Made by a program: the position numbers and the translations under genes. Below are positions 1-32,000 of a DNA stretch of 32,000 nucleotides, in pieces (within the stretch, counting starts at the first letter, position 1; every line of letters begins with the position of its first letter). Origin of the DNA: Candidatus Vampirococcus lugosii (GTDB lineage Bacteria; Patescibacteriota; Gracilibacteria; Absconditabacterales; Absconditicoccaceae). The notes below the pieces were generated by a model. The model saw only the letters and a list, made by a program, of their open reading frames with translations. It did not search any database and was not told the origin of the DNA. Where the stretch lies: NCBI RefSeq assembly GCF_018420025.1, contig NZ_JAEDAM010000008.1, forward strand, positions 6,451 through 38,450. The letters are read 5' to 3'.

Positions 1-1413
1 ACATAATCATCAAAGTTCATTTCATATAATTTCAACTTCATTATTATTTAAATTCCTACCATAAACTCTTATTGAAATGTCACCTACATAACCAGATTCA
101 TCAGAATAATTATTATCTTCTAATTTCCTGAAATTAAAACTATCAACATTAATAATAGGTGTTAAATTTGAATAAAATTCTTTAAGTTCTACAAGTGGAT
201 CTTGTATACTATCTCAAACTGTATATGCTAATATATGTAAATCTCTAAATTTTTCTCTAAACTCAGAATAACATACTCAAGATGATTGACAATCAACAGA
301 TTCATTTATAGTTTTTTTAATTATATCTTCATTTAAATATTTTGTTCAACCATCTCAATTACTTTTAATCCAATCATAAATATTTTTTCATATTTCATTA
401 TTTATCTCTTCTTCACTAAGTCATTCAAAAGAATTATTTTCTCTAATTGTTTTAAATAATATATGAGTAAATTCGTTAATTAAAGATATATTTCTTTTAT
501 TAGATGTAGCTGATAATTTACTCACCATTTTTAAGAAATTTTGTCTAGATTCTGTTTCAAAAGAAACATTAATAGGTATATTAAAATATTCTCATTCTTC
601 AACTATATCTCATACAAATATATTAGTTATATCAACATCATCACTAAAGAAATTTGACCAAGAACGTAAAAGATTTGTATCTATATATGGATTACTATCC
701 AAAAAATATTGTCACATTACAACCTCATTAGTATATCAATCATAAGGATGTTCCCAAACATTCAAAGAAGGAAATAAAAAGTTTATTAAAAATTTATTGT
801 ATTGAGATTGAGTCCTTTCATAATTATCTACAATCATATTATTAAAATTCTTTTCTTCTTCATATTTTTCATACAATGAAGAAACTTTTAAATTATTAGT
901 CAATCATACAGAAGCCAATAAAGTATCAATTTTATAAGTTCAAAGACTATAAAGAGAATCTAACTTATTATTTAAATTATCATAATTTGATTTCAAATCA
1001 AACAAAAAATATAACAGAATAAAAGTAGATAATACTCAAACAAACAATAAAGATATAAAGATCATTTTTGGACTTTTAAAATCTATTTGAGAAGAAGTTT
1101 TTTTATTCTTCTTACTTCAATTATCAAAATCATCTCAATTATCAAAATCAGAATCTCAATTATCAAAATCAGAATCTCAATCTCAATCATCAAAATTACT
1201 ATTTCAAGAATTACTTGAATAATTAGATTCAGGTTCCAATTCATCTAAATCTAAATTCACAGAATCTCATAAATCACTATTATCTGTATTTTTAGAATTA
1301 GATTTATTATCATCATTTTTTTTATTATCTCAATCATCGACTTGAAGTTCATCATTCAAATTTATATCTATTTCAAGTTCATTATTTTCCTCATTATTTT
1401 TTTTATCAAACAT
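1..1413 (-). CDS. Hypothetical bitopic membrane protein; C-terminus runs off the window start. Acidic N-tail, one TM helix, coiled coil, globular domain.
   Basis: The table-25 frame from ATG (cat 1411-1413) stays open to position 1. It starts MFDKKNNEENNELEIDINLND, has the TM segment MIFISLLFVGVLSTFILLYFLF, and contains many in-frame TGA. No family recognised. The topology resembles PilN/PilO-type proteins, which is inference only. Confidence 0.55.
1117..1197 (-). repeat. Short coding tandem repeat (18-21 bp units, tcaattatcaaaatca[gaatc]) encoding the D/F/N/G-rich acidic tail
   Basis: tcaattatcaaaatca recurs at 1117, 1135 and 1156, followed by a degenerate copy. It translates on the minus strand as DSDFDNGDSDFDNGDDFDNG. 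Confidence 0.7.
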
Positions 1414-1448
1414 TTTTATATTTTATATATTAATAATTTAAATTTATA

Positions 1449-2723
1449 TTATCTATCAACATCTACAACAAAGTCATATATTTCTCTTTCTACAGATTCT
1501 TGAATAGGAACATCAAAATCAAATGTAGAATTTAATACATTAATTTCATTTTCCTGAACAGTAACAGTTCTATCAGAGACCTCTAATGTATTAAATTTTA
1601 TTTCTTTTCAAACTATAAAGCTAGATGATCTTATAGAATTAATAAGTGTATTTGATATATATATGTGTGGATTTTTAATTCATCTATCAATCATAGATTC
1701 TATATCCTTAGCATAAGTATTAACATCTACCGAAAAAGATATATTACTAGCTCATTCTTCCATACTATTTAAAATTATAGAAAGCTGTGGCAACTCGTCT
1801 AATTCTAATTCTTCATCAATAAGCTTAATAATCTCCTTAAAAGTTTTAGAATCAAACTTATCAATATCTTTATACAAATCATCAAAATCTCAATATCTAT
1901 CACATTTTAAATTTTCATACGGATTTAAATAACAATTAACTAAATAATTTTGAATATCTTGTTCTCATCTATCAATAAAATATTTAAATTTTCTTCCCAA
2001 AAGTGATTTTTTATCCGAAGATTTTCCTATTAATTTTTCCATAAAGTCATCAAAATTATAAAAAACTTTCATAGAAGAATAAAATTTAATAGCTTCTATA
2101 GATAATAAAGCTCTTTGTATTTTAGTATTTTCTAGTATTCAATCAACTTCTTGTGGTAAATATCAATAACTAGCCAAATTATCCCTTTTATTTTCAGTAT
2201 CATCAATAAGATCTTTTATAACAGATACCGAATCTTGCATAAATTTTGATAAAGAATCTCTTTTATCTATATAAGGAGCATTTAAATTTATTTTTTCACT
2301 TATAGATTGATCAAATTGATCAATACTATCAAATTCAGATATTGATTTTAGCTTATCTAATCATACAGTAGAACTTACATTAAAATAATTAATTCAAACT
2401 ATAGAAAAAGCTGAATCTAAATATCAGTATATTTTATCTCTATTTTCTTCAAAAGAATTTATATAATTCATTTTTTCTTGAGAATTATCTTCCAAATTAT
2501 ACTTATAATATAAACTATAAAAATATACTATAGTGGAAACAAAAGCAATCAATAAAATATAAACCACTAAAATACTTGTCATTTTTTTATAAAAAGCTTC
2601 TTTCTTCATTTCCAATTTCTGTTGTTGTAATCTTTGATATTCTTTGCTATCTTCTTCTCAAACTCATTCCAAAAAACTATCAATAACATCTTCTTCTCAA
2701 ATATTACTATTTTTTTTCTTCAT
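1449..2723 (-). CDS. Hypothetical bitopic membrane protein (424 aa) with the same architecture as the upstream neighbour
   Basis: ATG (cat 2721-2723) to TAA (tta 1449-1451) is open under table 25. It absorbs the 63-aa standard-code ORF 2424-2615. TM segment: MTSILVVYILLIAFVSTIVYFYSLYY. The length is divisible by 3. Confidence 0.6.
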
Positions 2724-2756
2724 TTTTTAATAAATTATTTAAATAAATTTAACTCA

Positions 2757-2784
2757 AGTTTAAATATTATTTTTTTTTTGTCAA
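2757..2784 (-). promoter_or_regulatory. Candidate sigma70-type promoter for the 2723 gene (TTGACA-16-TAAACT on the minus strand)
   Basis: The plus strand has tgtcaa at 2779-2784 and agttta at 2757-2762. In AT-rich DNA such matches are common. Confidence 0.3.
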
Positions 2785-2867
2785 ATTTAAGTGAGTTATT
2801 TTTTATAATAAATTAAAAATTAGTTAAAATTTAAAGAAAAAATATATAAAAAATAAAGCTCCTTTAT

Positions 2868-2895
2868 TTGACATTTTTTTTTAGATCTTTATAAT
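2868..2895 (+). promoter_or_regulatory. Consensus sigma70-type promoter for the pilT operon (TTGACA-16-TATAAT)
   Basis: TTGACA lies at 2868-2873 and TATAAT at 2890-2895, about 45 nt upstream of the pilT ATG. Confidence 0.45.
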
Positions 2896-2938
2896 ATCTT
2901 CATATTAATAATTTTTAATTATACATAATTTATATATT

Positions 2939-4057
2939 ATGAAAAGTAGTACAGATAATAAATTTTATAAAATTATTTGAGATCTAATAAAATATGAACT
3001 TTCCGATATTCATATAATTGAAGATAGTGACATATATGTTAGAAAAAATAATTGATCTATAATTTCACTTAAAGATACATCATTAGATGCTGATGAAATT
3101 TATTGATTTTTGAATGATATATTAACTGCTAGTGAAATAGATAATTTAGTAAAATGATCTGAAATAGATGTATCTTATGAATTATCTTGATTTAGATTTA
3201 GAATTAATGCATTTAGATCAAATAAATGAATAAGATTAGCATTGAGAAAAGTTGTTTCTAAACCTCAAGGTATGGAAGAAATATGATTTTCTTCTACAGT
3301 AAAAGAAAGAATATTATCAAAAAATAGTTGATTAATATTAGTTACATGACAGACTTGAAGTTGAAAATCTACATCATTAGCAGCAATTATAAATGATATT
3401 AATGAAAATAAAAATGCACATATTATAACTTTGGAAGATCCTATTGAATATGTTTTTGAAAATAAAAAATCTTTAATAACACAAAGAGAAATTTGAAAAC
3501 ATAGTCATTCTCGGACTAAAGCTATAAAATATAGTTTAAGACAAGATCCTGATATAATTATGGTATGAGAAATGAGAGATTATGAAACTATATCGGCAGT
3601 ATTAACATTAGTAGAAACATGACATCAAGTTTTTAGTACTTTACATACTATGGATTCTATACAAACTATTAGTAGAATAATTGATTCATCTCCTACTAAT
3701 AGACAAAAACAGGTAGCAACTCAACTTAGTTTAGCTTTGGATTTAATAATTTCTCAATGTTTAATTAAATCAAAAACTTGAAAAAATAGAGTTCCTGCTA
3801 GAGAAATATTAATAAATACAAGTTGAATTGCTAACAATATTAGAGAAAATAATCTTCCTCAAATGTTTTGAATTTTGGAAACATCTATGAGACACTGAAT
3901 GAATACATTAGATCAAGATATTGCAAGATTAGTGTCAAAATGAATTATAGATATAAATAATGCATCTCCATATATAAGAAATCTAGAATCTTTTAAAAAT
4001 TTACTTAAATATTACAGTTATAGCAATGAATGATTATGATTTAATCCAATTGATTAA
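2939..4057 (+). CDS. pilT: Type IV pilus retraction ATPase PilT (372 aa)
   Basis: The table-25 translation gives Walker A LILVTGQTGSGKSTSLAA, then ITLEDPIEY, Walker B/Asp box DPDIIMVGEMRD, and His box VETGHQVFSTLHT. The size and the absence of a long N-domain fit PilT rather than PilB. Confidence 0.9.
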
Positions 4058-4796
4058 AGAAAATACTTCTTTGGAAAATATTAATGCTTGAAATTATCTT
4101 TTTGAAGAAAATACATCAAATAATAGTTTGTTCTATATTGAATCTTGAACAGTTTTTTTGGAAAAATGAAATAATACATTATTCTCAATATGAGCTTGAA
4201 ATATAATAGGTGAAAAAAGTTTTATTGAAGAATCTGGTAAACCTATTTCAGCAAAAGCTCAAGATTATATTGAATATTATGAGCTTAAACATTCTGATTT
4301 TATAAATTTTTCATCGGAAATTAAACTTAAGTTTTTTAAAAATTTGTCATTAATGCTTTCCAATAGAATATATAAAATTAATAATATATTAGATAATATA
4401 AAAATTATTAATAAAAAAGTTTTGAATGAAAAATTCTTTGATAATAATTGATTTGTATCAATTTTTGATAAAATAATAGAAATAGATAAATATTTTTTAT
4501 TGAAATATCAAGTAAATTCTAATTCTTATCAAAATATACTTTCAAATAACTTTTTTTCTTTAGATATAGAAGATTTTATAAATTCTTTTTTGGAAAATTG
4601 AAAAGAATTTAAAATATGAGAAAATTATATATTTATGAAATGTGGTGAGTATATATATTTTATCATGTGAGATCTACTTTTGGATAAATACATATTATCT
4701 AATAGTTTATTTTACAATATTCCTATGTTTAAATATTTATGAAGTTTTATAGAAAAAAATCAAGCAGATAAATTTTTAGAATGATTAGAACAATAA
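4026..4796 (+). CDS. Cyclic-nucleotide-binding-like (CAP/Crp beta-barrel) domain protein (256 aa)
   Basis: Sequence NAGNYLFEENTSNNSLFYIESGTVFLEKGNNTLFSIGAGNIIGEKSFIEESGKPISAKAQDYIEYYELKHSDF matches the cNMP-binding barrel pattern (G..lF.eG...lyiv.sG.v.l......l..G...GE.s.....sA.A). The phosphate-binding-cassette Arg appears replaced (KPISA). The gene overlaps the pilT 3' end by 32 nt. Confidence 0.5.
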
Positions 4797-6116
4797 ATGA
4801 CAACTAAAAAGAAAATTTATTTTTTTATATTAACTATATTTGTAATATTCTTTGCTTGGGGGTATTACATTTTTTCTATATTTAATGAAAATAATAAAGA
4901 TTTATCTGCTGATATAAACAATAAAAATCTTTCAAATACTTGAAATATAAATCAAGATATTACATTATCTGATTTATCAAAAAAAAATAATCAAACTAAT
5001 ACAAATAAAGTTTATATACATATGCCAAAATTTTTTTATGAAAGATGATTTGAAATAATTAAAAAACAATTAAAAACAAAAAATATAGAAGTTGAATATG
5101 TACTTTATTGATCTATTTGAGAACTTAATGAATTTGTTTTTGAAAATTGAGAAAATTATGATATAGCATTAGTTCCTGATTCTACTTTTTTGAGTATGTG
5201 AGATAAAATCTTGGATTTTGATTTTTCAAATGCAAATATTAGATCAGCTTTTAATTCAATTTTTTACGATTTATTTGATGAAAATATTAGTATAATACCA
5301 TATTGAATAGATCCTTGAATAAGTATTGTAAGAGACAAAGTATTTTGGAGAAGTTTTGATAATATTGATTTCAAAACTATCAAAAGATATATATTAATTA
5401 ATTGATCCAAGAATAATTTAATAAATTTTGGTTTTGGTAAAGATTTTATATCTTGAACTAAAAGATGAATAGATATAACTTATAATTATTCATCTTTACT
5501 TTTTGATGCATTAAATGCCAGTATTGATAATAATAATTTAGATTATATAGATTTTGCTTTGGAATTATGAAAAGATTGAATTTATAAATGATTTAATCCT
5601 TATTATTTTATTAGAATTTATAAAAGTATAAAATGTGATAATTATTATTCTAGTTTATGTGTATTTTTAAAATGAAAATTAGATATTCATCTATGATATT
5701 TATCAGATATTGATATTTTATCTCAACAATCATCTTTTTCCAAAAAAGATTTTATTGTATACAATTCTCCTTTTCTTAGTGAAGAAAATTATCCAACAAA
5801 ATTGTGGTGATTTGTAATAAATAAAAATTCACAAAATATAAATTGATCAGTTAATTTTATTCAATCTTACATAGATATGTGAACAAAATGAAATAGATTG
5901 TGAAACAATAATATATTGTCAGCTTTTAATTGAGTTTACTCAAAACAAATTGATAAAGAAATTTATAATTGAATTAGAAAATTTGAAAAAAATTTCAAAA
6001 ATAATAATTATAATTACAATATATGAGATTTACTTAATAATAAATTCATAATAGATTATGTTGAATGAGAAATTGCTAATTCTTTATTTTTGGAAAAATT
6101 ATCTAATTATTTTTAA
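4797..6116 (+). CDS. Hypothetical N-terminally membrane-anchored protein with a large extracytoplasmic domain (439 aa)
   Basis: Its ATG directly abuts the upstream TAA (caaTAAATGaca). TM segment: IYFFILTIFVIFFAWGYYIFSIF. The frame is open under table 25 to TAA 6114-6116. A faint resemblance to solute-binding-protein folds is not supportable without a search. Confidence 0.55.
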
Positions 6117-6426
6117 TATTTTTAATTTCTTCTATCAAAGATAAAACTGAATCATATACATTAAAAAAATCTACATTTTTAATATTTTTTTGACTTAATA
6201 TATGATTTATTATTATTTCTTGATTGTTGATTTTTATAATCAAATTATTTTTAATCTTGCTATCTTCTAAATCATCAACTTGATCTTTTGCTAATTCCAA
6301 TGATTTTTTTAAACTTAAGACCTCATTTCTAGTTTTATTTGATTTAAATTTATCATAAGATATTTTGATCATAAAAAAACTAAAAATTATAATCAAAAAG
6401 ACAAAAATATATATTAAATATTCCAT
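6103..6426 (-). CDS. Small TM + coiled-coil protein (107 aa)
   Basis: This ORF is already intact in the standard code. Its N-terminal TM is YLIYIFVFLIIIFSFFMI. Its ATG overlaps the murA stop (TAATG), so it is probably co-translated in the operon. Confidence 0.5.
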   Translation of the reverse strand: MEYLIYIFVFLIIIFSFFMIKISYDKFKSNKTRNEVLSLKKSLELAKDQVDDLEDSKIKNNLIIKINNQEIIINHILSQKNIKNVDFFNVYDSVLSLIEEIKNIKNN

Positions 6427-7646
6427 TATTTTCTGTTAATATCAACTCATAAATTTTTAAGTTTTTCTTGTATCAACTCATATCATCTCAAAATAATTTT
6501 TTCTTCAGTAATATAAGTAGTTCATTGTGCAATTATTCAAGCTAATAACATAGCTCATCATCATCTCAAATCTGTAGTACTTACATATCATCATTTTAAT
6601 TTAGTTTTTCATATTATTATAACTTGATGAGGGTTTAATATCTCTACTTTTGCTCCCAAATTTTCTAATTCTGCCAAATATGTAAATCTTCATTCAAAAA
6701 GTGTTTCATGTATTTTATTAATTCAATTTATTTGAGTCAACAAAACAGCAAATATTGACTGTAAATCTGTAGGAAATCAAGGAAATATTGTAGTTTGAAT
6801 TTTTATATTTTTATAATTTTCAATATTGTAAGAATCAACTATAATAGTTTCATTATCTATTAATTTATAATTAATTCAAATTTCATCAGCCATAGAAAAT
6901 ATAGAATATAATTCATCAACATTACATCATTTAATTTGTATTTGAGAATTTGGAACTGTTGCTCATATAGCAAAAAATGTTCAAGCTTCAATATAATCTC
7001 ATATTATTTTAAAAGATTTATTTTTTATCTTTAATTTTTGTGGTTTAATAGTAAGACTATGATCATGATTTATTTTTATATCAGTTCAAATATTTTTCAA
7101 AAAATCTATAAGATTAATAACATGAGGTTCTATTGCAATTTGTTTTATATTTACTTCATAATCTACATCTTCCAAAAAAGCTATATATGTAAGTAAACTT
7201 TCTGTTGCAGTTACACTAAATTCTTTCAAAATAATTTTTTTATTAGGTTTATTTTGTTTTGTATATTCTTTATATTTTCATTCATTTATTTGAACTCATG
7301 CTTGAATTAATGCATCATCAAATGTTGAAGTAGATCTTTTTCAAATATTACATCATCATGCACTTTCAAATTTTACTTTTCAATAATTAATAAGTCAATA
7401 AGGAATAAGAAGTATACTAGATCTAATTTTTTTTGCTTCAGGTATAGAAAGATCTAACTCTTTTTTATTTTTTGACAAAGATATTATTTTTTCCAAAACA
7501 TTGACATCATCAATTTTAGGTTTATTTTCAAGTTTTATTTGATTATTTATTATTGCATTTGCTGATATTATTGGTAGTGATGCATTTTTACTTCCTGATA
7601 CAGTTATTTGTCATTTCAAATTATTTGACTGTTTTACTACAAACAT
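6426..7646 (-). CDS. murA: UDP-N-acetylglucosamine 1-carboxyvinyltransferase MurA (406 aa)
   Basis: The table-25 translation gives MFVVKQSNNLKGQITVSGSKNASLPIISANAI..., then TDLRGGGAMLLAG, and ends EKIILRGYELIQEKLKNLG. These are classic MurA motifs. Confidence 0.9.
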
Positions 7647-7663
7647 AATATTTTATTTAATTT

Positions 7664-8596
7664 TTATTGTAAATTATTTGTCAATTTATTATAAATTCAT
7701 TTTCAATCAAATTTTACATCTTCCCAAATAAATTCTTCATTTTTTGTTCATATTTTTTCATCTGGAGATATAAATCTTATTTTACAATCTATAATTCATA
7801 TATCCCATAACTGTGATTTAATTCTATCTAAATAATTTTTATTATATATTTGATCAATTATTATAATTAATTCTTCGGTTTTTTGTAAGCTTTCCAATAT
7901 TTCTTGATTTAACTTAAAATTATGATCATGTATACAAAAAACATCATACATTAATCAAGATTCTCTTGCCAAATTTGTAAATTGTATTGTATCTTGAAGC
8001 ATACTTGCTCATACAAGTATTGTTCAATTTTCTCAAACTAATCCAAGTCATGTAAGATTTGATATTTTTCAATAAGGATCTATTCATATTGAATTATCTT
8101 TAGATAAACTACCAGTTATAGTTCTATAAGGCACTCTAATATATTTTTGTCATTTTTTAATAGTATATTCAAAAAATGTTACAAAATCATAATATTCTAA
8201 TATATCAAATTCATAATTTAATAAAGTTGAAATATCATCACTTTCCAATATATCTTTATTTATAGCAGAAGAAACTCAAGCTCATATATTTATTATTGTA
8301 AAATTAATTCAAATTGATTTTGCTTTTTTTATAAAAGGAATAATATAATTTATATTTAATTTATCAATTATAAGTAATATATTATTTGAATCTTCAACCA
8401 AAGAAATTAATTTTCAATTTATAGAAAAGTCATATCAATAATCTTCCAATGTATATATTTGAAATCATTTATATTCGTCAATAATATCTTTATCTATTTT
8501 TTCAAAAATAATAGTATCAAATATTTTTTTTCTACCCAAATTTTTCAATACAAGTCAAGATTGAATATACTTAACTATATTTATCTCATTCATCAT
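7664..8596 (-). CDS. Transketolase/DXS-like C-terminal (Pyr + TK_C) domain protein, tentative (310 aa)
   Basis: The pattern IRVPYRTI...GKISNL...GENGTILVGASMLQDTIQFTNLARESGLMYDVFCIHDHNFKLNQEILESLQKTEELIIIID resembles the C-terminal half of transketolase-family enzymes. Recognition is by pattern only. Confidence 0.4.
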
Positions 8597-8628
8597 AATT
8601 GTTTATTTATAACTTAATAAAAAATATA

Positions 8629-9009
8629 TTATATTCTCATAATTTCATATTCAACTTTTGATTCTTCCAACTTTGATTTTATAGATTTTTCATTCTTATT
8701 CAAGTTAGATTTTCAAGTTTTTATCTCCAAAAAAACTATTTTATTTAAATTTCATTCACTTAATCAATCAAATACAATATAATCAATTCATTTTCATATA
8801 AAAACTAAATCTTTGTAATTATAATTAAATTGAGGTAAAATAGGAGCAATTTTTTCATTTACTTGTCATAATATTACTGATTTAGATCTTCATATAGCAT
8901 CTTTTCTTACAGATTTATTTTTAATCCAAAAATGTATTTTTGCAAACAAATATCAAATTATTAATCATATTATTATTCAAAATAATATAAAAATAAAATC
9001 CTTTTCCAT
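8629..9009 (-). CDS. Membrane-anchored Holliday-junction-resolvase-like endonuclease (COG4741-type), 126 aa
   Basis: An N-terminal TM (FIFILFGIIIGLIIGYLFA) is followed by GKGIDYIVFDGLSEGNLNKIVFLEIKTGKSNLNKNEKSIK. This matches the restriction-endonuclease-like core of the predicted secreted Hjc-related nucleases. Confidence 0.5.
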
Positions 9010-9805: not shown

Positions 9806-9840
9806 AATATCAAAACTTTATCAATAAATAAATTACCAAA

Positions 9841-9870
9841 AAAGCATCAACTGTATACAGCTAATGCTTT
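9841..9870. terminator. Bidirectional stem-loop between convergent genes
   Basis: AAAGCAT...ATGCTTT arms enclose the perfect palindrome CTGTATACAG. The hairpin sits between the rhomboid stop (9805) and the stop of the minus-strand small gene (9886). Confidence 0.4.
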
Positions 9871-9885
9871 AATAAAAGTGAATAT

Positions 9886-10062
9886 TTATCATCTATCATT
9901 TTTTCTTAAAAAAAATAGAGAGATAAATATACAGGTTATAAACCAAAAAAAGTTTAAAAGAATGCTTGTGTATATGTCGGTATGTAAGAAATTAATATAT
10001 TGTTTTAGAAATATAAATATAATAATTCCAAACATCCATACAAAAAAAGCTATGTTTTTCAT
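9886..10062 (-). CDS. Small two-TM membrane protein (58 aa; alternative TTG start at 10158 would give 90 aa)
   Basis: MKNIAFFVWMFGIIIFIFLKQYINFLHTDIYTSILLNFFWFITCIFISLFFLRKNDRG. The ATG is preceded by TAGGAGtaaatatc, a Shine-Dalgarno-like sequence that is rare in this window. One TGA precedes the TAA stop. Confidence 0.4.
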
Positions 10063-10309
10063 GATATTTACTCCTATGAAATTGGAGAAAAGTAGTGTAG
10101 TCGCTACTAAATATAGATAGCAACACAAATAATATATTTTAAAATAATAAAAAGTCAATAGATTTTAACTTTTTATTTATTAATAAATTAATTATTTTTC
10201 TTGTTTTAAAATAAAAGTTTGATTTTTATTAAAAATTGTTTAATAATATACTTTAATTTTATTAAATAATTTGATTAAATAAATTTTATTTATTATAAAA
10301 ATATATAAA

Positions 10310-11317
10310 GTGGAAAAAGTATTAGCAATAGAGACTAGTTGTGATGATACATCAGTTGCAATAGTTAATTATGATTGAAAATTTATAAAAACTGAAAAAT
10401 CAGTTTCATATAGTCAAATAAAAGAACATAAAAAATTTGGTTGAGTAGTACCAGAAATAGCATCTAGATTACATAATGAAAAAATAATTGGTATATTGGA
10501 AAGTATATGAAAAGATAATATAGTGAAATGCGATAAAATAGTAGTTACAGCAAATCCGTGATTGCCTTGATCTTTGATAATTGGTAAAACTGTTGCAAAT
10601 ATTTTATGAGAATATTATTGAAAAGAAATTATTTATGAAAATCATATTCATTGACATATATTTTCAATACTTTTGGGTAGAGATATTGATAAAATAAATT
10701 TACCTATTGCAATATTAACAGCTTCTTGATGACACAATGATATTTATATATTATCAAAAAATGATAATAAATTTAATCTGGAACATATATGAATGACATT
10801 AGATGATGCATCATGAGAATGTTTTGATAAATGTGCAAGAATGCTTTGATGACCATATCCTTGATGAGCTTGGATTTCTAAAATTGCAAAAGATTGAAAA
10901 AATGATGATGATTTAAAAATATGACCTATATATTTAAAACAAAATGAATATAAATATAGTTTTTCTTGAATTAAATCAAAAGTTTATTATGCGATAAAAC
11001 AAATAGAAGAAAAATATTGATCTTTATCTGATCAAGATATAAAAAATATAGCATATATGACTCAAGAAGCTATTGTAAAATCTTTATGAAAAAAAATAAT
11101 ACAAGCATGTCTTGAATATGAATGTAAAACATTATCTATAGTATGATGAGTTTCTGCAAATGATAGACTGATTGAATATATTCAAAATAAAACAAAAAAA
11201 TATAATATTGATGTAATTAGACCTATTAAAAAAGAATATAGTACAGATAATGCAGATATGATATGAGCATCTTATTTATGAAAAAAATATTATTTTAATT
11301 TATCTTTAATAAATTAG
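10310..11317 (+). CDS. tsaD: tRNA N6-adenosine threonylcarbamoyltransferase TsaD (335 aa, GTG start)
   Basis: VEKVLAIETSCDDTSVAIV, GVVPEIASRLH, the metal site HIHGH (Gly = TGA 10652-10654), ILTASGGH, and IVGGVSAN. No in-frame ATG lies upstream. Confidence 0.9.
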
Positions 11318-11364
11318 TTCTTAATCTTTTTGTTGATATTATACTGATAATTCTGTTTTTGTCT

Positions 11365-11395
11365 ATTGTTAACAATTTAATATTGTTAACACAAT
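11365..11395. promoter_or_regulatory. Two operator-like ATTGTTAACA sites, 17 bp apart
   Basis: ATTGTTAACAAT at 11365-11376 is a perfect 12-bp palindrome. ATTGTTAACAcAAT lies at 11382-11395. Both are immediately upstream of the -35 box of the mini-gene promoter. Confidence 0.4.
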
Positions 11396-11410
11396 TAATA
11401 TTAAAAACTA

Positions 11411-11438
11411 TTGACTTTAATTGTTTTTTGATTATACA
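11411..11438 (+). promoter_or_regulatory. Promoter of the Cys-rich mini-gene (TTGACT-16-TATACA)
   Basis: TTGACT lies at 11411-11416 and TATACA at 11433-11438. They are followed by a roughly 45-nt leader ending in AAGGGGG (11476-11482), 5 nt before the ATG. Confidence 0.4.
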
Positions 11439-11487
11439 TTTTTTGCTGGAGTGTTTCTTTAACAACCAATTATCAAAGGGGGAAATT

Positions 11488-11670
11488 ATGACGGCTGAAC
11501 TCTTTTCAAATGAGACTGTAGAAACTCATGAACACAGTGATGGTTATTGTATAATAGTTTGCGAATATTGCGGTGTTACTATGCCGAATCATCATTGGTC
11601 TTGTAAACAAGAAGGCTATCTTCTATGTGAAGAATGCTTTCATAGCTATATAGATGGTGAGATCAACTAA
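11488..11670 (+). CDS. Small cysteine/histidine-rich metal-binding (zinc-ribbon-like) protein, 60 aa
   Basis: MTAELFSNETVETHEHSDGYCIIVCEYCGVTMPNHHWSCKQEGYLLCEECFHSYIDGEIN. The cysteine pattern is C-x3-C-x2-C...C-x7-C-x2-C. The gene has a strong SD, visibly higher GC than its surroundings, four GGN glycine codons and no TGA. Confidence 0.6.
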   Translation: MTAELFSNETVETHEHSDGYCIIVCEYCGVTMPNHHWSCKQEGYLLCEECFHSYIDGEIN

Positions 11671-11689
11671 ATAGCTATGAATTTGTGTT

Positions 11690-11717
11690 GTAGGGATTAT
11701 TTATCTCTACTTTTTTA
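11690..11717 (+). terminator. Rho-independent terminator
   Basis: GTAGGGAT-tattt-ATCTCTAC forms an 8-bp stem with one G:U pair, followed by TTTTTTAT, 20 nt after the stop codon. Confidence 0.55.
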
Positions 11718-11763
11718 TATGTATAGTAAATAAAAAATTTAAATAATATAATTATATTTAATA

Positions 11764-12699: not shown

Positions 12700-14430
12700 A
12701 TGCAAAATAATATATCTTTTACGAGTGAAATAATAGAAACAAAAAATGGTTTTTGTGAAACTATTGATAAATTGTTAATATCGGAAGCTTTTCAAAAATC
12801 TTTTGAACTTATTTTAGATAAAAATCTAAAATATAATAAAGATTATTTTTTATGAATATTATCAAAAATAAAAAATAATCAAAATTTGGAAAAATCTGAA
12901 AAAATAGATTTTATACATTTTGTTAGTGATAAAGAAATAATTTTAACTGCAGAAAAAATAATGTTAAAATTAAAAATTATAAATTTTTCTTTGGAAGAAG
13001 TTAAAATATTTTTGGAACAATATCCAGTATCAAAAATTATTGATAATTTAATACAAAAATCTAAAAGAGAAATATTTGAAACTATGGAGTGAGATATAGT
13101 AGAAAAAATGGTTGAATATGATGATTGAGAATTACTTATATATAAACAAATTATAAATAATACAGATAAATATTGTATAAAAAAATTATGAGAAAAATTA
13201 AAAAATGAAGATTTTAAATTTAATGTTATTTTTGATGTACAAGAAATAAATTGAGAAATTTATTCTAAAGTTAAAATATGAGAAAAACAATGATATATTA
13301 AACTATGACAAGAAAATAATACAGAAAATTTAATAAAATTTGATTTAGTTTGAAATTTACAAGAAATAAATTGAGAAATTTATTATGAAGTTAAATTATG
13401 AAATATAGAATGATATATTAAATTATGAAATGAAAATGGTGATATACTTGATATAGAATATATAAAAAAAATTAATTGAAATTCAAATTTGGAACAACAA
13501 AAAGATATAAAACCAAAAAATGAATGATTAGAAATAGCAGTTGAATATCAAAATTTAGATATGAAAGTATTTAGAAAAAAAATAAAAAATATATATAAAT
13601 ATTGTACAAAAAATAATTGAGATTCTATAGAAAAAAAAGATTTTAAATTTGATTGAATTTGGGATTTACAAGAAATAAATTGAGAAATTTATTATAAAGC
13701 TAAATTATGATCAAAAGAATGATATGTTAAATTATGAGATGAAGATAATGCAGAAAATTTAATAAAATTTGATTTAGTTTGAAATTTACAAGAAATTTAT
13801 TGAGAATATTTTTATAAAACTAAATTATGATCAAAAAAATGATATATTAAATTATGAGATGAAAATAATGCAGAAAATTTAATAAAATTTGATTTAGTTT
13901 GAAATTTACAAGAAATAAATTGAAAATATTATTATAATGTATTATTATTACATAATAAAATTCAAAAAGGATGATATATTAAATTATGAGATGAAAATAA
14001 TGCAGAAAATTTAGTAAAATTTGATTGAGTTTGAAATTTACAAGAAATAAATTGAGAATATTATTATATATGAAAAATATTATCTAATAAAATTCAGAAA
14101 GAATGATATATTAAATTATGAGATGAAGATAATGCAGAAAATTTAGTAAAATTTGATTGAGTTTGAAATTTGCAAGAAATTGATTGAGAATATTATTATA
14201 TATGAAAAATATGATCAAAAAAATGATGTATAAGATTATGAGATGAAAATAATATACAAGATTTGATTAAATTTAATTGGGTTTTTAATGTAGAAAAAAG
14301 AAATTGACAAATTATTTATTATGCCTCATTATGAAATCACTTATGATATGTAATTTATTCAGAAAGTATATTTTATTTTAGTAAATCAAAATATGGCGAA
14401 AATAAAATAGAATTAAAAAATATTAAATAA
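12700..14430 (+). CDS. Tandem-repeat protein with about 8 WG-like beta-repeat units (576 aa), tentative family
   Basis: A unique N-terminal region of about 170 aa is followed by 40-44 aa units, FDLVGNLQEINGEIYYKAKLGSKEGYIKLGDENNAENLIK. The motif x-G-Y-I-K-L-G-D-E resembles the WG/KWG repeat core (GyId..Gk). The repeat glycines are encoded by TGA. No signal peptide or TM is evident. Confidence 0.6.
13222..14340 (+). repeat. 120/132-bp in-frame tandem repeats with long near-identical DNA stretches
   Basis: The marker caagaaat(a/t)(a/t)attga recurs at 13240, 13360, 13669, 13789, 13909 and 14041, with a diverged copy (caagaaattgattga) at 14173. Spacings are 120, 309, 120, 120, 132 and 132 bp. 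Blocks such as aatgcagaaaatttaataaaatttgatttagtttgaaatttacaagaaat are identical between units. Confidence 0.85.
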
Positions 14431-16541: not shown

Positions 16542-18017
16542 TTATCAAAATTTCCAAGGAGTTCATTCTATATTTCAATTTATAGTTTGTTTTCCAAAAA
16601 TTGTTTTTTCATAAAATTCTTTCAAATTATTAGAATTTGCATAAGATAAGGAACTTGCTAATGCTCAATGAAATTTTCTAATTATTTCAAAAAATGATCA
16701 ATCTCATTTGTATGGAACTATATCATCTGCTCATTCATCAAATATAGGTCAATAATTATTTGATTGAAATCAAGAAAGTTTATTTGCTTTCAAAGATTCT
16801 TTAAAACTTGCCATTCATCTATAATCTTTATATAATTTTCAATCTATATTTCTAAGTTGTCAAACTGCTTTATCAGTACCAGCAAAAATTGATCACATCA
16901 TACCAAAATCTGCTCAAACTGCTATAGCTTTTGCCAAATTTCAAGCTTCTTTTATTCATCAATCTGCAATTATTTTAACATTATTGAATCATTTTTTATC
17001 CAAAGCTTGTCTTATTTCCCATATAGCTGATAATTGAGGTTTACCAAATCAAGTTTGAATTCTAGTTTTACAAGCTCATCAAGGTCATATTCATACCTTT
17101 AATATATCTGCTCATTCTTTTGCAAATTCTATAGCTGCTTTAGGATTATCAATATTTCAAGCTGTCAATAATATATTTGGAAAATTATTTCTAATTTTTC
17201 TCAAAACTTTTATAAATCTATCATTGTATCAATGAGCTGTATCAAAAACTATCATATCAACTCATTGAGAAACTAGTAAAGAAGTTCTATCAATAGGATC
17301 TCTATTAATTCATAATGCAGCAGCTACTACAAGTCTACCAAAATTATCTCTAGCAGAATTTGGAAATGTTTTATAAAAATCTAATCATTTTTTGGTAAAT
17401 AATCAAATTAATTTTTTTTCACTATTTAAAATAGCTAATTGTTCTACTTTTGATTTTTTAAGTTTTTTCTCTCAAATTTCCAAATCAATATTTAAATCAT
17501 TTGATTCTATATAAAATAAATCATCAAATTTTGTCATTAAATCACTTGCACAATCATTATCGCTATCTGCACTATTTATATCCCTTTTGGTAATAATTCA
17601 TTTTAAATTATTATTATCACTTACAATTAATGCTCATATTGAATATTCTTCAAAAATATTTTTTATATCTTTTACTATAGTATCAGAACTAATACTTATA
17701 GGATCTGATATTATAGGACTTGCATATTTTTTAACTTTATTTATTTGATATATTTGTTCTTGTATTTCATAATTTTGATGAATAACTCAAATTCATCACA
17801 TTAATGCCAAGTATTTAGCAAAATTTCAATCCATAACTGTAGACATATTTGCTCATAATATAGGAAGATTAAGTTTTAAATTTTTTATTTTTACTGAAAG
17901 ATCTATATTTCTTCTACTATGAATAGTAGATTTTTCATTTATCAATAAAAAAACATCATCAAATGTAAGTTTTGTTCAATCATCTGGAAAATTAAATTTG
18001 TCTTCTCGCTTTTTCAT
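16542..18017 (-). CDS. guaB: IMP dehydrogenase GuaB with CBS pair (491 aa)
   Basis: LTFDDVFLL, GGIGVIHQN, a CBS-like insert, catalytic loop KVGIGPGGACKTR (Cys retained), IADGGI, and GADFGMMGSIFAG. Confidence 0.85.
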
Positions 18018-18068: not shown

Positions 18069-19349
18069 TTAATTAAGTATTTTAAAATTTTTTTTACCTT
18101 TTCTCAAAATTCATACTTTTGATTTAATTAAATCATCTCTTGAAATTATTTTTTCTATACTTTCTATTTTTTCCTCATTAAAATATATTGCTCAAGATTT
18201 AATAATTTTTTTTGCATCAGAATTTGACGAACTTAAACCTAATTTTGTTAGTAAGTCTATTATTTTAATTTCTCAATTTATTTTTATTCAACCAGTTTCA
18301 TTTTGTGTTGCTTTTATTTCTTCTTCATCCATTGAATTTAATATATCCAATTTATTTTCTTTGGAAAACATAATTTTGGAGATTTTTTTTGCTTGATTTG
18401 ATTCTTTTTCTCCAAAAATAGTTTTAACTACATTATCAGCTAATATCTCTTGTCAAAATCTATTTTCTGGATTATTATTATGTTTTTCAATTATTTTTTG
18501 TATTTCATCAAAATTCAATATTGTATAAATTTTCAAAAATCTTTCTATATCATCATCATTACAATTCATAAAATATTGATATACAAAATATGGACTTGAT
18601 TTAGTTTTATCAAGCCAAATAGCATTTCATTCAGATTTTCCAAATTTCTTACCATTACTATCCAAAATCAACGGAGCAGACACTACAAATCATTCTTTAT
18701 TAATAATTTTTCTTATTAATTCTATTCAAGTAACTCAATTTCACCATTGATCAGAACCACATATTTGTAGTTTACAATTTTTTTCTTTATATAATTTGAC
18801 AAAATCATATGCCTGTATCAACATATAAGAAAATTCAGTATAAGAAATACTTTTGTCTGGATCTTCAATTCTCTTTTTTACAGTTTCTTTATTTATCATA
18901 TTATTTACTGTGATATATTTTCCTACATTTCTAAGAAAATCCAAAAAATTAATATTTTCATAAAAATCGTAATTATCAACAATTTCATAATCAATTTTTT
19001 TTCATAATAATTTTTCCAAATTTGATATAATTTCTTGCATTTGTTTAGATAAACTTTTTATATTTTTTTGTAAACTTTCTTTATCCAAAAATTCTCTATC
19101 ACTATCTCTTCAACTTGGATCTCATATCATACCAGTTGCTCATCAAATTAATAATATTAATTTATTTCATTTCAAAATGTAATTTAATGCATTCATAAAT
19201 ACAGTAAAATGACCTATATGCATACTATCAGCAGTAGGATCTACCCCAAAATATAATGTTTGTCATCATTTATCATATAAATCAAAAACTTCTTCATTAC
19301 TAAATTGATAAACTAATCATTTATTTTCCAATATATTTTTAAGTTTCAT
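18069..19349 (-). CDS. tyrS: Tyrosine--tRNA ligase TyrS (426 aa)
   Basis: [15 protein letters not shown] (HIGH motif), LIGGATGMIGDPSG, GSDQWGNG, KFGKS (KMSKS motif), and a C-terminal S4-like domain. Confidence 0.9.
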
Positions 19350-20000: not shown

Positions 20001-21434
20001 ATGATTGATTTAAAAGCATTATTAAAAAATTTATTATTTATCTCTGAATGAGAATGATATGTTGAATTCAAAGAAAATTTTGATAAAGAAAGGGATTGAA
20101 AAAATATTTCTGCTATATCAAATATAGCACTTCTAAAATGAAAGGAATTTGGTTATATAGTTTATTGAATTGAAGATAAAACAAAAAAAGTTATTTGAAC
20201 AAAATTCAATCCAAATAATGAATTTTTTTGAAATCAAAATATAAAAATGTGGTATTCTCAAAAAATAACACCAAAACTAGACTTAGAATATCTTGAAATA
20301 GAGTATGAATGAAAAAATATTGTGATAATAAAAATCCCTTCTGCAAGTGATAAACCTATAGAATTTGACTCAAAAGCATATATAAGAATATGAGAATCAA
20401 CAACGACTCTTTCAAAATATCCTGAACTTGAAAGAAAAATATGGAATAATGAAAAAAATAAAAATTTTGAAAAACAATTAGCATCAAATAACCTAAAGGT
20501 AGATGAAATTTTAAAATTATTAGATTATGATAAATACTTTCAATTAAGTAAACAAGAATTACCTACTGAAACTTCAAAATTTCTTGAAAAAATGAATCAA
20601 GACAATTTAGTAAAGTTAAATAATGATTGAACTTATAATATAACTGTATTATGAGCAATTTTATTTGCAAGAAATATTGAAAATTTTTCTATAATAAAGA
20701 GAAAAACTATTAGAGTTATAACTTATGATTGAACAACAAAAGTAAAAAGAAAAAATGATATTGAATGAAAATATTGATATGCTATATGATTTGAATGACT
20801 AATTGATTATATCATATCTCAAGTTTGAAATAATGAAGAGATTACAAAAGCATTAAGAAAAAATACTAAAATTTATCCTGAAATAGCTTTAAGAGAGTTT
20901 ATTGCAAATGCTATAATACATCAAGATTTTTCAGTAACTTGAACTTGATCTCTTATTGAAATTTATTCAAACAGAATTGAAATAACAAATCCTTGAGTTC
21001 CTCTTATAGATACAGAAAGGTTTATAGATCATCCTCCCAGATCTAGAAATGAAGATTTAGCTTCTTTAATGAGAAGGTTTTGATTTTGTGAAGAAAGTTG
21101 ATCATGAGTTGATAGAGCTTTGATAAATATTGAATTATATCAATTACCTGCACCTAAGTTTGAAACTTTTGATGATTTTACAAAAATTACTTTATACACT
21201 CCTAGACCTTTAAAAGATATGACAAAAGATGATAAGATAAGGGCTTGTTATCAACACTGTGTATTGATGTATATAAAAATGGAAGAAAAGATGACAAATA
21301 AAAGTTTAAGAGAAAGATTAAATATTCCAGAAACAAATTATCCAGCTGCTTCAAAAATAATATCTGATACTCTAAAAGCTTGAAAAATAAAAGAATGAGA
21401 AAGATCTAAAGAATATATACCATGGTGGGCTTAA
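20001..21434 (+). CDS. Schlafen-like AlbA_2 (divergent AAA) + HATPase_c_4 + C-terminal HTH protein (COG2865-type), 477 aa
   Basis: The N-terminus has SEGEGYVEFKENF...KNIVIIKIPSASDKPI (AlbA_2 pattern). The central part has REFIANAIIHQDFSVTGTGSLIEIYSNRIEITNPGVPL (HATPase_c_4 / RecG-C-like pattern). The C-terminus has a winged-helix-like MTNKSLRERLNIPETNYPAASKIISD. Gly is heavily TGA-encoded. Confidence 0.7.
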
Positions 21435-21544: not shown

Positions 21545-21559
21545 AATAACTCCAAAAAA

Positions 21560-23516: not shown

Positions 23517-24893
23517 TTAAATATAATCAAATTTCACAATATTTTTTATGTCAAAAATAGCAAATCATATTTTTATATTTTTATCTAGAAATTTTTGATT
23601 TTTATTTAGAAATAAAGAAACATTATTTTTTAACTGATTTATTTCTGATTGATTTATTCTATTTTCGTTTAGTTTACATTCCAAAAATACAATATTTTCT
23701 TTTTCATCTGTATAAATTATATCTATTTCATTGTTTTTTCTATCAAGCCAGGTTCATATTTTGGTAAAAGTAAAATCAAGATTTCATTTTTTATTTTCTA
23801 AAATCAAAAAATCTTTTACTAACTTTTCAAATTTAAATCATTTGTATTTTTCAAAATCTTTCAAAACATTTTCCAAAACCAAATCATAAAGTCATAATTC
23901 AAATTTATCTTTATTTGAATAAATATACTTAAACCAAAACTCTATAAAATTATCTTTAATTTTGTATTTACTTATATTTTTTTTGCTTTCCAAAAATGGA
24001 TAATCCACTTCTATGATATCATAAATATCTATAAGTTCTTTTAAATATAAATCAATTTCTCAAGTTCAAAGTCATACTTGATCCATTATTTCATTTCTTT
24101 TGTTTTTTCAAACAGAAATAGCTTCTATAATAGCAAAAAATCTTTTATATTTCATACCAAATTCTTCTATCAAAATTTCTTTTCATTCATTTTTAAATAA
24201 TGCAAACTCATCAAAAAATAAGTCTTTTAATATTTGATTTAACTCATATTTATCATAATTTTCTCTATAAATAGATTTTAAATAATAAGCAATTCAACCA
24301 AAAATAGAATAAATATCAAGTAATATTTGATGATTATAATTTTTTCCAAAAATGTCTTTTAGTATCTCTACTTGAGTATCTAAATCAAACTCTTTGATAA
24401 ACAAGTTAAAAGTAGCTCTTTTATAAAGTGGTTCTTTTGAGTTTTCAAAGATTTTTATCATAAGACTTTGTAAACTTCCAAGTACTATTATTTTTTTATT
24501 TGATTTGTTTTGATATTGGTCAATTTTCTTTTGAAAAATAGAAAAAATTGATTTATCAACATTATTAAAATTTTGAAACTCATCTATTACAAGTAAATTT
24601 AAATCAGATTGTAAAAAGAAAAAATCCAAAAAATCTTCTATAGTTTCAAAATTGTATTTTAATCAAGTTTTTTCATAGATATATTTTTCTTGTTTTTGCA
24701 AAAAAACTTTTAGATCTGATTTTTCTACAAATATATAATAAAAATCTTTTTGTAAAATGTTGTTATTTAAGTGAGTTATAAGTTCTGTTTTTCAGACTCT
24801 TCTTTTTCCAAGTAAATAAATAAACTCAAAATTATTTGAAGTTATTTTTTGTGATAAAATTTTTATTTCTTTTTCTCTATTATAAAATTTCAT
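23517..24893 (-). CDS. AAA+ ATPase of the Arch_ATPase/DUF234 type (458 aa)
   Basis: FYNREKEIKIL...FIYLLGKRRVGKTELI (Walker A), LLVIDEFQNF (Walker B), and a C-terminal DUF234-like nuclease-fold segment WLDRKNNEIDIIYTDEKENIVFLECK. Confidence 0.7.
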
Positions 24894-26190: not shown

Positions 26191-26193
26191 AAA

Positions 26194-27093: not shown

Positions 27094-27097
27094 TTTA

Positions 27098-29502: not shown

Positions 29503-29519
29503 AATTTTTTTATAAATTA

Positions 29520-29624
29520 TTAAATTTTAATTTTATTCTTTATATAATCAATAATATCTTTTGTTTTTAAAAAAGCTTTTCACTTTCTTTTAAATATCTC
29601 ATAATAATATTTTTTTGTTGTCAT
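29520..29624 (-). CDS. Possible small ORF (34 aa) MTTKKYYYEIFKRKGKAFLKTKDIIDYIKNKIKI; may be a gene remnant
   Basis: Its first 13 codons and upstream leader are conserved with 30822-30887. No family recognised. Confidence 0.2.
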
Positions 29625-29646
29625 AGTGGTTAAGTTAAAGGTTAAA
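29586..29646 (-). repeat. Conserved 61-bp block, copy 1
   Basis: tcttttaaatatctcataata(a/g)tatt(t/g)ttttgttgtcata...ttaaaggttaaa is shared with 30849-30909. Confidence 0.8.
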
Positions 29647-29681
29647 ATGGAAAATTTTTCTCCAGCCAATGGTTGGATTAT

Positions 29682-30710
29682 TTAATCCAATAAATTCATC
29701 TCTCTTTCTATTTCTTCAAGTGTTGGAAGCAATCATTTCAAATCTTCTGGTAAATCTTCTTTTGTGATATAAGAAGCAACTCATATAGGTTTATTGACAT
29801 CTTTTAGTGCATATTCTACTATTAACCTATTTTTGTCTTTACAAAGAATTATTCAAATAGGTAAATTTTCTCATTCTATCATATCTTGTTTTTCAAGAGC
29901 AGATAAGTACATATTCATCTTTCAAGTATATTCAGATTTGAAATTCCCAGCTTTTAGTTCTATAACAACAAAACATTTTAATTTTCTATGATATAAAAGC
30001 AAATCAATATAAAAATCTTCTCATCAAATTTCAAGTTTTACTTGTCTTCAAACAAAACTAAAATAAGTTCAAAAATTTTTCAGAGTTTTTTCTATTGAAG
30101 TAACCAAAAGATCTTCCAAAGTTTTTTCCAAAAAAGGTTCCTCCAATGAAAGCAGACTAAAATCATAACTATCTTTTACAAGCAAAGATAAATCTCAATT
30201 ATTTTTTAAATCAGGTAGAGTTTCATCAAAATTTGTTTGTCTCAAAGCCCATTTTTCAAAAGCTTTAAAATTAAGCTGTTTTTCAAGTTCTCTTTTGCTC
30301 CATCTTTCTCTTATGGACATTTTTATATAAAACTCTTTTCTTAAATCATCTTTTCAATCTCAGTAATTTGTTTTATCTAATATAAAAATATGATGACTCC
30401 ATGATATTTGTGCAACCAGTGGTTGCATTTTTAGATTATCTTTATATGAAATATATAATTTTTTCATATATAAAAGATTTCTTTTAGAAAAACCTCTTCT
30501 AAATTCAGCTTCTAAATCTTTGCTAAGTTTTCAAATAATATCATCTCACCATTTAGCTTTTTCTTGTTTTTCTATGATAGATTTTCAAATATTCCAGTAA
30601 AGATGTATAAGTTCTTTATTTACTGACTTTAAAGCATTATTTCTTGCTTGTAATATATTTTGCTTAATCTCTATTAAGAAATTTTTATAATCATTTGAAA
30701 TTTTTGTCAT
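29682..30710 (-). CDS. DUF1016/YhcG-type PD-(D/E)XK nuclease, paralog A (342 aa)
   Basis: N-terminal helical domain LYWNIGKSIIEKQEKAKWGDDIIGKLSKDL...ISWSHHIFIL. C-terminal nuclease core FSFVGRQVKLEIGGEDFYIDLLLYHRKLKCFVVIELKAGNF...GKMNMYL...PIGIILC. Confidence 0.75.
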
Positions 30711-30795
30711 AATAATATTTTTTCATTATTAAATCTTATCCCTTATAATTATTTTTTATGATTTTTAAAGTTAAAAAAGATTAATTACAAAAAGT
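30711..30795 (-). repeat. Conserved 85-bp upstream (promoter/leader) region, copy 1
   Basis: By my hand alignment it is about 90% identical to 31913-31998 (a few mismatches and one indel), starting immediately 5' of the nuclease ATG. Confidence 0.85.
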
Positions 30796-30821
30796 CTTGT
30801 AAAAACTTTATATCAATTTTG

Positions 30822-30887
30822 TTAAATCAAAAAATCTTTTTTCATAGATCTTTTAAATATCTCATAATAGTATTGTTTTGTTGTCAT
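30822..30887 (-). CDS. Possible small ORF (21 aa) MTTKQYYYEIFKRSMKKDFLI; a truncated homolog of 29520-29624
   Basis: It shares its start and first 13 codons with the other copy and then diverges. Confidence 0.15.
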   Translation of the reverse strand: MTTKQYYYEIFKRSMKKDFLI

Positions 30888-30909
30888 AAGGATTTTATTA
30901 AAGGTTAAA
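30849..30909 (-). repeat. Conserved 61-bp block, copy 2 (contains the stop codon of paralog B)
   Basis: See 29586-29646. Confidence 0.8.
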
Positions 30910-31912
30910 GATTTTCTAACTGTCTTTTAAAGTCTTCTTTTTTTGGTAAATAAAGATTATACTCTTTTGCAAAAATCATATTTTCTCATTCTGGAAGAGT
31001 GTATTCAACAACAATATCATTTTTTTCTTTACATAGAAGTATTCAAATAGTTTTATTTTCAAAATTTTGTTTTATTTCTCTATCATAATAATTCACATAC
31101 ATTTGCATTTGTCATATATCACCATGAGTTATTTTTCAGATTTTTAGATCTATCAAAACAAAACATTTAAGTAGTCTATTATAAAAAACTAAATCTACAT
31201 AAAAATGATCTACTCCAGCTGAAAATCTCTTTTGTCTTCATACAAAAGTAAATCATTTACCAAGTTCTAGTAAAAATGTTTCTAAATTATTTATAATAGC
31301 TGTTTCAAGCTCTGTTTCTGAATATGATGATCTTTCCTCTAATCATAAAAACTCCAAAATATATGGATCTTTTAAAACATCATTATAGTTTTCTATAATT
31401 TGTCATTTTTTAGATAATTCCAAAACTCACTTTTTATCTTTACTAAGTGTAAGTCTTTCATAAAGTGATGAATTTATTTGTCTATCAAGCTCTCTTACTG
31501 ACCAGCTATTTTCTATAGTTTCTATTATATAAAAACTTCTTTCATTTTCATCTCTAACGGATAATAGTCTTACTATATGAGTCCAAGATAATTTCCTCAT
31601 CAGTGATGAGGATTTTTCAAAATCTGGAAAATAAGTATAGAAATACCTCATTCTTTCTATATTTTGCACAGAAAAACCTTTTCAAAACTCTTTTGTTAAA
31701 TCTTTTGATAATTTTTTTAATAATTCTTTTCAATATTCAGCTCTTTTTTCTCATTTTTGCTCATATTCAACTATATATTTTCAAATACTAAAATATGTTT
31801 CTACTAAAATAGTATTTACTAAATTTATTGCTTTTTGTTTATTATTAGAAACTATTTTTCAAATCTCTTTTATAAGCATACTGTAATCGTTATTTGAAGA
31901 TATATTTGTCAT
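30905..31912 (-). CDS. DUF1016/YhcG-type PD-(D/E)XK nuclease, paralog B (335 aa)
   Basis: YFSIGKYIVEYEQKGEKRAEYGKELLKKLSKDL...LSWTHIVRLL, followed by FTFVGRQKRFSAGVDHFYVDLVFYNRLLKCFVLIDLKIGKI...GQMQMYV...TIGILLC. It absorbs the 80-aa standard-code ORF 31427-31669. Confidence 0.75.
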
Positions 31913-31998
31913 AATAATATTTTTTCATTATTAAATTTTAATTCTTTATAATTATTTTTTATTATTTTTAAAGTTAAAGAAGATTAATTACAAAAAGT
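31913..31998 (-). repeat. Conserved upstream region, copy 2 (runs to the window edge)
   Basis: See 30711-30795. Confidence 0.85.
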
Positions 31999-32000
31999 AT

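Follow-up and report, generated by a model that had tools for sequence, protein, structure and literature searches.

That UGA is read as glycine in SR1 and Gracilibacteria (translation table 25) has been textbook knowledge since 2013. The subject of the present analysis is the genetic code in a 32,000-nt segment of the genome of Candidatus Vampirococcus lugosii (positions 1-32000, the whole stretch that was analysed, called the window here), and in particular the meaning of the codons UGA, CGG and CGA. For this organism, the recoding of UGA is stated in the genome paper by Moreira et al. (PMC8080830), in which genes were called with Prodigal under table 25. For Absconditabacteria, Shulgina and Eddy (eLife, 2021; PMC8629427) used Codetta to infer that CGA and CGG are read as Trp besides UGA as Gly, and this inference is restated in a 2026 paper (PMC13092985). 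The tRNA criteria given for the Trp assignment of CGR (R being A or G) are G73, the absence of A20 and an A/G1:U72 pair, and the G+C content of the CGR-reassigned clades is given as 0.26-0.38 (PMC8629427). V. lugosii is absent from the text of that study (0 occurrences).

In the window, UGA almost certainly encodes glycine as in table 25, with UGG as the Trp codon and UAA and UAG as stops, CGG and probably CGA being most likely Trp codons as well. The UGA part of this reading is correct, already published for V. lugosii (PMC8080830) and nothing new; the assignment is supported by four lines that are independent of one another, namely by the residues found in homologs, by profile scores, by codon exchange between orthologs and by amino acid composition.

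UGA at glycine positions

The window has a G+C content of 20.2%. Scanned in six frames with TAA, TAG and TGA all taken as stops, it has 199 codons as its longest stop-to-stop stretch. If only TAA and TAG terminate, the longest frames reach 653, 636, 586, 494 and 487 codons; in 50 shuffled versions of the window under the same rule, the longest frame averaged 111 codons and never exceeded 153. Reading through TGA gives 26 genes that cover 89.3% of the window, with several junctions that are short or overlapping (-32, 0, -14, -1, 17, 3, 4 and -1 nt). TAA closes 23 of the 25 complete genes and TAG the other 2, and the 26 genes contain no internal in-frame TAA or TAG, versus TAA and TAG counts of 825 and 823 in their two off-frames. 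In-frame TGA codons amount to 492 and are spread over 25 of the 26 genes. Read-through of the other two stops was also considered and rejected, as TAG read-through produced no long frames, and TAA read-through gave at most 331 codons together with many spurious overlapping frames. An initial annotation of this DNA had reported nothing beyond 198 aa under the standard code, read-through frames of about 650 codons and a tiling of genes with small gaps and overlaps, and had asked for genes to be re-called; the figures above bear it out on each of these counts. The read-through frames alone have no power to separate code 25 from code 4, in which UGA is Trp.

Codon usage shows what the recoding would mean for the proteins. 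Among 9,543 in-frame codons, TGA makes up 5.16% (492), the GGN codons together 0.88% (84), in line with the rarity of GGN claimed in the initial annotation, and TGG 0.59%. Under code 25, the glycine content is 6.0% and UGA accounts for 492 of the 576 Gly codons (85%). In this genome of 20% G+C, UGA serves as the main Gly codon, having largely replaced the GC-rich GGN codons, with UGG remaining Trp and UAA, rarely UAG, terminating genes.

The position of TGA within well-known motifs is consistent with glycine. In pilT, encoding the type IV pilus retraction ATPase (2939-4057, plus strand, 21 in-frame TGA), the Walker A motif reads V-T-TGA-Q-T-TGA-S-TGA-K-S-T at 3341-3373, with TGA at 3347, 3356 and 3362. 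TsaD carries H-I-H-TGA-H at 10643-10657, the TGA being 10652-10654. Its gene (10310-11317, plus strand, 25 in-frame TGA) lies within 10283-11317 and probably starts with GTG at 10310, giving M-E-K-V-L-A-I-E-T-S; this N-terminus has no ATG nearby (the first ATG is at 10793). The IMP dehydrogenase (IMPDH) gene guaB (16542-18017, minus strand, 39 in-frame TGA) encodes the catalytic loop V-TGA-I-TGA-P-TGA-TGA-A-C-K-T-R, and in tyrS (18069-19349, minus strand, 19 in-frame TGA) the motif G-S-D-Q-TGG-TGA-N-TGA at 18735-18758 of the minus strand agrees with GSDQWGN in both aligned structures (1jii and 6n0w). On re-check, the motif coordinates previously given proved correct; for the IMPDH loop, the earlier range of 17070-17096 spans V through C, and the full loop occupies 17061-17096 on the minus strand.

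For comparison with standard-code homologs, TGA was translated as X before alignment in order to prevent circularity. Five proteins (GuaB, TyrS, MurA, TsaD and PilT) were aligned to solved structures of standard-code organisms in the PDB, in ten alignments in total; the murA gene, for the UDP-GlcNAc enolpyruvyl transferase, lies at 6426-7646 on the minus strand and has 27 in-frame TGA. In the 245 aligned cases, TGA stood opposite G in 155, A in 26, S in 11, L in 9, N in 7, K in 7 and various other residues in the rest, with W in none; this is the TGA-column tabulation called for in the initial annotation. Gly is found opposite 16 of the 27 TGA of MurA in each of two alignments, and opposite 26 of about 35 in each of two for GuaB. 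The GGN codons face G in 34 of 46 pairs, and TGA therefore behaves like a Gly codon; TGG faces W in 4 of 8 pairs and AGA faces R in 58 of 101. In terms of summed BLOSUM62 fit, the best residue for TGA is G (814), followed at a distance by A (54) and S (41), and of the codons aligned at least 20 times, TGA alone has a best residue other than that of table 11, all the rest fitting it.

Profile searches and wider homolog sets point in the same direction. Pfam scores with G, X and W placed at TGA were 319, 227 and 198 bits for IMPDH, 177, 128 and 108 bits for EPSP_synthase (MurA) and 207, 158 and 142 bits for TsaD, so that, relative to X, G gains 49 to 92 bits. Among distant database homologs (below 47% identity for PilT and below 45% for GuaB), G clearly predominates in the TGA columns of both proteins, with 762 G against 49 W in PilT and 843 G in GuaB, where W falls outside the ten commonest residues. 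The 49 W in PilT come from a few sequences that carry W at nearly every TGA column. The NCBI entries of V. lugosii itself are 100% identical to the window proteins and have G at 21 of 21 TGA positions in PilT and at 39 of 39 in IMPDH (GuaB).

Independently of any translation, codon exchange was followed at the DNA level by mapping codons onto the aligned proteins of seven orthologous gene families. Five pilT neighbourhoods from relatives (L085-L089, G+C 22-27%) were found through PilT homologs, their PilT being ~54-63% identical to that of the window outside TGA; they are syntenic with the window genes at 2939-9009 and likewise need TGA read-through. A guaB locus (L001), which shares guaB alone with the window, came from a scan of genome contigs. 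A scan of metagenome contigs with the GuaB alignment gave no close relative and only distant loci of IMPDH/GMP-reductase type (25-48% identity, mostly marine), which were uninformative for the GuaB N-terminus. In 498 pairs involving a window TGA, the codon opposite was TGA in 281, GGN in 54 and TGG in none; among the 2,177 codon pairs with TGA over all genome pairs, TGA was opposite GGN in 226 and opposite TGG in none. Conversely, window GGA faces TGA in 10 of 12 cases, and window TGG faces TGG in 22 of 26 orthologous pairs.

As a side observation on these relatives, two of the loci, L001 (CAZACQ010000013) and L085 (CAZACQ010000001), belong to one assembly, GCA_964483725.1, which has 24-27% G+C, needs TGA read-through and is syntenic with the window, its GuaB being 73% and its MurA 71% identical. 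The L001 contig is labelled "uncultured Candidatus Peribacteria bacterium" (Peregrinibacteriota), a label that looks wrong, as the assembly behaves as an Absconditabacterium.

Some observations weigh against glycine or fail to lend it help. At about one-third of the TGA positions, the aligned residue is something other than Gly (A, S, N and K among them), a scatter that is normal for variable columns and that GGN shows to a similar degree. As for the decoding machinery, ARAGORN found no tRNA gene in the window and no tRNA-Gly(UCA) in the 12 other loci that were scanned, those of the relatives included. The Pfam matches of the window include nothing like prfB, a stretch of 32 kb being uninformative on genome-wide absence. 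Judging from the lineage, UGA would be decoded by a tRNA-Gly with anticodon UCA, release factor 2 being absent. The assignment of UGA to Gly, neither stop nor Trp, as proposed in the initial annotation, is upheld by the 155 Gly and 0 Trp among 245 aligned residues and by the 226 exchanges with GGN versus 0 with TGG. Its further statement that table 25 is known only for Absconditabacteria and Gracilibacteria fits the host, which NCBI places in the phylum Candidatus Absconditibacteriota.

CGG and CGA: tryptophan or arginine

Arginine-type codons in the window are strongly uneven, with AGA 210, AGG 22, CGT 3, CGA 1, CGG 1 and CGC 0 among the 9,543 codons, and Arg would be encoded by AGA, AGG and CGU. 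The only CGG (3512-3514, plus strand) is residue 192 of PilT, where the NCBI protein has Arg. At the DNA level, the corresponding column holds TGG in the genes of five out of five relatives, and 68 distant homologs have Phe (61), Trp (6) or Tyr (1), i.e., an aromatic residue in 68 of 68. The only CGA (18006-18008, minus strand) is residue 4 of GuaB, in the context MKK-CGA-EDKF, and is CGA also in the closest relative; in Absconditabacteria-like GuaB proteins further away, the residue is Phe in five, Ile in one and Ser in one. By sequence comparison, Trp is a possible, if weak, reading of this CGA. A PDB search with the GuaB N-terminus gave an alignment that stopped short of the CGA position. 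The IMPDH of Firmicutes starts M-W-E-S-K-F, which would correspond to the [CGA]-E-D-K-F of GuaB.

Beyond the two window codons, three further columns have a CGA or CGG in one relative and TGG in the remaining genomes, with at most one exception, two of the columns being in the gene at 4797-6116 and one in the gene at 7664-8596. The exchange partners of AGA give the complementary picture: CGT is opposite AGA in 13 of 20 ortholog pairs, and in 986 ortholog pairs with AGA, none has CGA or CGG opposite.

The relatives also provide tRNAs with the matching anticodons. ARAGORN named as tRNA-Arg a tRNA(CCG) in L001 (15580-15655, minus strand) and a tRNA(UCG) in L087 (17582-17655, plus strand), both with 8-bp acceptor stems, which were re-registered to the canonical 7 bp on U8, G18-G19 and A21, plus A14 in L087. 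With the 7-bp stem, both have A1:U72, G73 and U20 or G20 in place of A20, whereas a control tRNA-Arg(UCG) on a standard-code contig (L007) has G1:C72, A73 and A20. Judged from sequence, the features of the two tRNAs are Trp-type identity marks.

Several points count against extending the reassignment to V. lugosii. The window offers just two CGR codons, and the CGA at 18006-18008 sits in the poorly conserved N-terminus of GuaB. The tRNA identity marks are those of relatives. In addition, the PilT of L087 (10001-11116) has a CGA at the conserved Glu of Q-R-E, equivalent to window residue 184, a column in which Glu is conserved and Asp occurs in one relative, and neither Arg nor Trp suits this position. 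Possible causes are a sequencing error, a paralog or context-dependent decoding. Overall, the placement of CGR shows a consistent tendency towards Trp columns, in a small number of codons.

Of the alternatives, the one that survives best is that the code is exactly table 25, with CGG and CGA as ordinary, very rare Arg codons and the Trp and Phe placements as chance substitutions. That the window holds only two CGR codons speaks for it, as do the use of table 25 for translation by NCBI and in the genome paper (PMC8080830), the erratic placement of CGR, such as the CGA of one relative opposite a conserved Glu, and the variable meaning of CGG among Gracilibacteria in the Codetta study (PMC8629427). 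On the other side, chance substitution would have to account for a CGG that faces TGG in each of the five relatives and an aromatic residue in every distant homolog, for three more CGA/CGG codons of relatives on TGG columns, for the lack of CGA and CGG opposite AGA, with which CGT does pair, and for tRNA(CCG) and tRNA(UCG) of relatives that lack A20 and have G73 and A1:U72; moreover, the genome-wide inference for Absconditabacteria is published (PMC8629427). We consider exact table 25 rather unlikely. The reading preferred here is that CGG probably encodes Trp in V. lugosii, and a similar degree of likelihood attaches to the view that in this organism itself both CGG and CGA are Trp codons, making three reassigned codons in all. 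Given the Trp-like behaviour of CGG and CGA, table 25 probably falls short of the full code of V. lugosii, and the Arg at residue 192 of the NCBI PilT is probably wrong.

Tryptophan or termination at UGA

A reading of UGA as Trp, as in table 4 of Mycoplasma, Spiroplasma and some insect endosymbionts, would explain the long frames equally well, and it finds apparent help in the databases. Public Absconditabacteria-like relatives (P0002-P0057 and P0122-P0129) mostly carry W in the TGA columns, with 499 W versus 186 G for PilT and 222 W versus 63 G for GuaB. This distribution suggests translation of those entries with table 4, a systematic error of the pipelines that places Trp on catalytic glycines, and the NCBI entries of V. 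lugosii have G. The comparison with standard-code homologs goes the other way, W being opposite TGA in 0 of 245 PDB pairs, and the Pfam scores of the three families fall by 16 to 29 bits relative to X if W is placed at TGA. Under code 4, the composition would be 5.7% Trp and only 0.9% Gly, and such a Trp content is implausible. The change from TGA to TGG is a single transition, synonymous under code 4, and is thus expected to be frequent there. Its complete lack (0 of 2,177 pairs, with GGN exchange in 226) therefore excludes Trp and supports Gly. Within TyrRS, TGG for Trp directly adjoins TGA for Gly in GSDQ-W-G-N. The exclusion of the Mycoplasma-type code in the initial annotation is thereby sustained by the structural alignments, the codon exchange and the profile scores alike, and we regard Trp as having a negligible chance of being correct.

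Hardly any credence is left for UGA as a true stop, with the window consisting of pseudogenes or sequencing artefacts or relying on local bypass (selenocysteine or programmed read-through): it has on its side that table 11 leaves no open frame beyond 199 codons, and against it the 492 in-frame TGA in 25 of 26 genes, their location on invariant glycines of the Walker A motif, the IMPDH catalytic loop and other motifs, the sharing of the TGA position with orthologs from five other genomes in 281 of 498 cases, frames that run for hundreds of codons with neither TAA nor TAG although the DNA is 80% A+T and, for selenocysteine, the result of an Rfam search that found no RNA family in the window and therefore no SECIS (selenocysteine insertion sequence)-type element.

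Gene content and comparison with known codes

Outside the genes used above, the window (26 genes, coding density 89%) encodes further proteins of note. The gene at 12700-14430 (plus strand) encodes a repeat protein of 576 aa with 46 in-frame TGA (8% of codons), in which about 11 copies of a ~35-residue repeat have TGA regularly placed (..KFDLV-G-NLQEIN-G-EYYY..KL-G-SK.-G-YIKL-G-DENNAENL..). No Pfam family matched it, whether TGA was set to X or to G; the repeat may be of a beta-propeller-like or cell-surface type. Three other orphan proteins of the window have no Pfam match even with G at TGA. The product of the gene at 14467-16425 (minus strand; 652 aa) has long acidic IEIDENDEN repeats and, at its C-terminus, a weak SLT lytic-transglycosylase domain; it may be a cell-wall-degrading factor of V. 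lugosii, an epibiotic predator. Two adjacent paralogous genes for DUF1016/YhcG PDDEXK nucleases (29682-30710 and 30905-31912, both on the minus strand) lie near a Schlafen/AlbA_2-HATPase_c_4 gene (20001-21434) and an ATPase_2/DUF234 gene (23517-24893), and together these may form a defence or mobile-element-like cluster. The regions 9806-10280 and 11318-11760, intergenic or doubtful, hold only short TGA-free open reading frames (ORFs), e.g., a Cys/His-rich one of 60 aa at 11488-11670, and neither an Rfam family nor a tRNA was found in them. Another TGA-free ORF, at 6103-6426, matched only two short Logan contigs (SRR13241708 and SRR13241709).

For annotation, gene calls in this DNA need UGA as Gly, since every gene falls to pieces under table 11 and catalytic glycines turn into Trp under table 4. 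If CGR is Trp, annotation under table 25 mistranslates it as Arg, as for residue 192 of PilT and residue 4 of GuaB. Trp at CGR would also carry the Codetta inference over to V. lugosii, the first member of the phylum whose morphology and ecology were characterised, and to a G+C content (20%) below that of the clades described so far. The refinement concerns few residues per genome and is a small, testable correction to published annotation; it matters for curated annotation and for the study of Arg-codon capture in AT-rich genomes.

Among known codes, table 4 (Mycoplasmatales/Entomoplasmatales and insect endosymbionts) resembles the window in having UGA as a sense codon in an AT-rich, reduced genome, with the same pattern of read-through ORFs; it differs in that TGA here is never opposite Trp and never exchanges with TGG. 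The code inferred by Codetta for Absconditabacteria (PMC8629427) is matched in that CGA and CGG are very rare, at one each in 9,543 codons, that Arg is mostly written AGA, that CGG and CGA stand opposite Trp or other aromatic residues, and that tRNA(UCG) and tRNA(CCG) of relatives have G73, A1:U72 and no A20. The differences are that the window, at 20% G+C, lies below the 0.26-0.38 of its CGR-reassigned clades, and that the inference there was genome-wide, whereas here it draws on two codons and on relatives. Table 25 shares with the window a sense UGA at glycine positions, UGG as Trp, UAA and UAG as stops, low G+C and an Absconditabacterium as host. The meaning of UGA shows no difference; CGA and CGG are Arg in table 25 and look like Trp here. 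With 85% of the Gly codons, UGA is dominant in the window, which goes beyond the role of a mere additional Gly codon.

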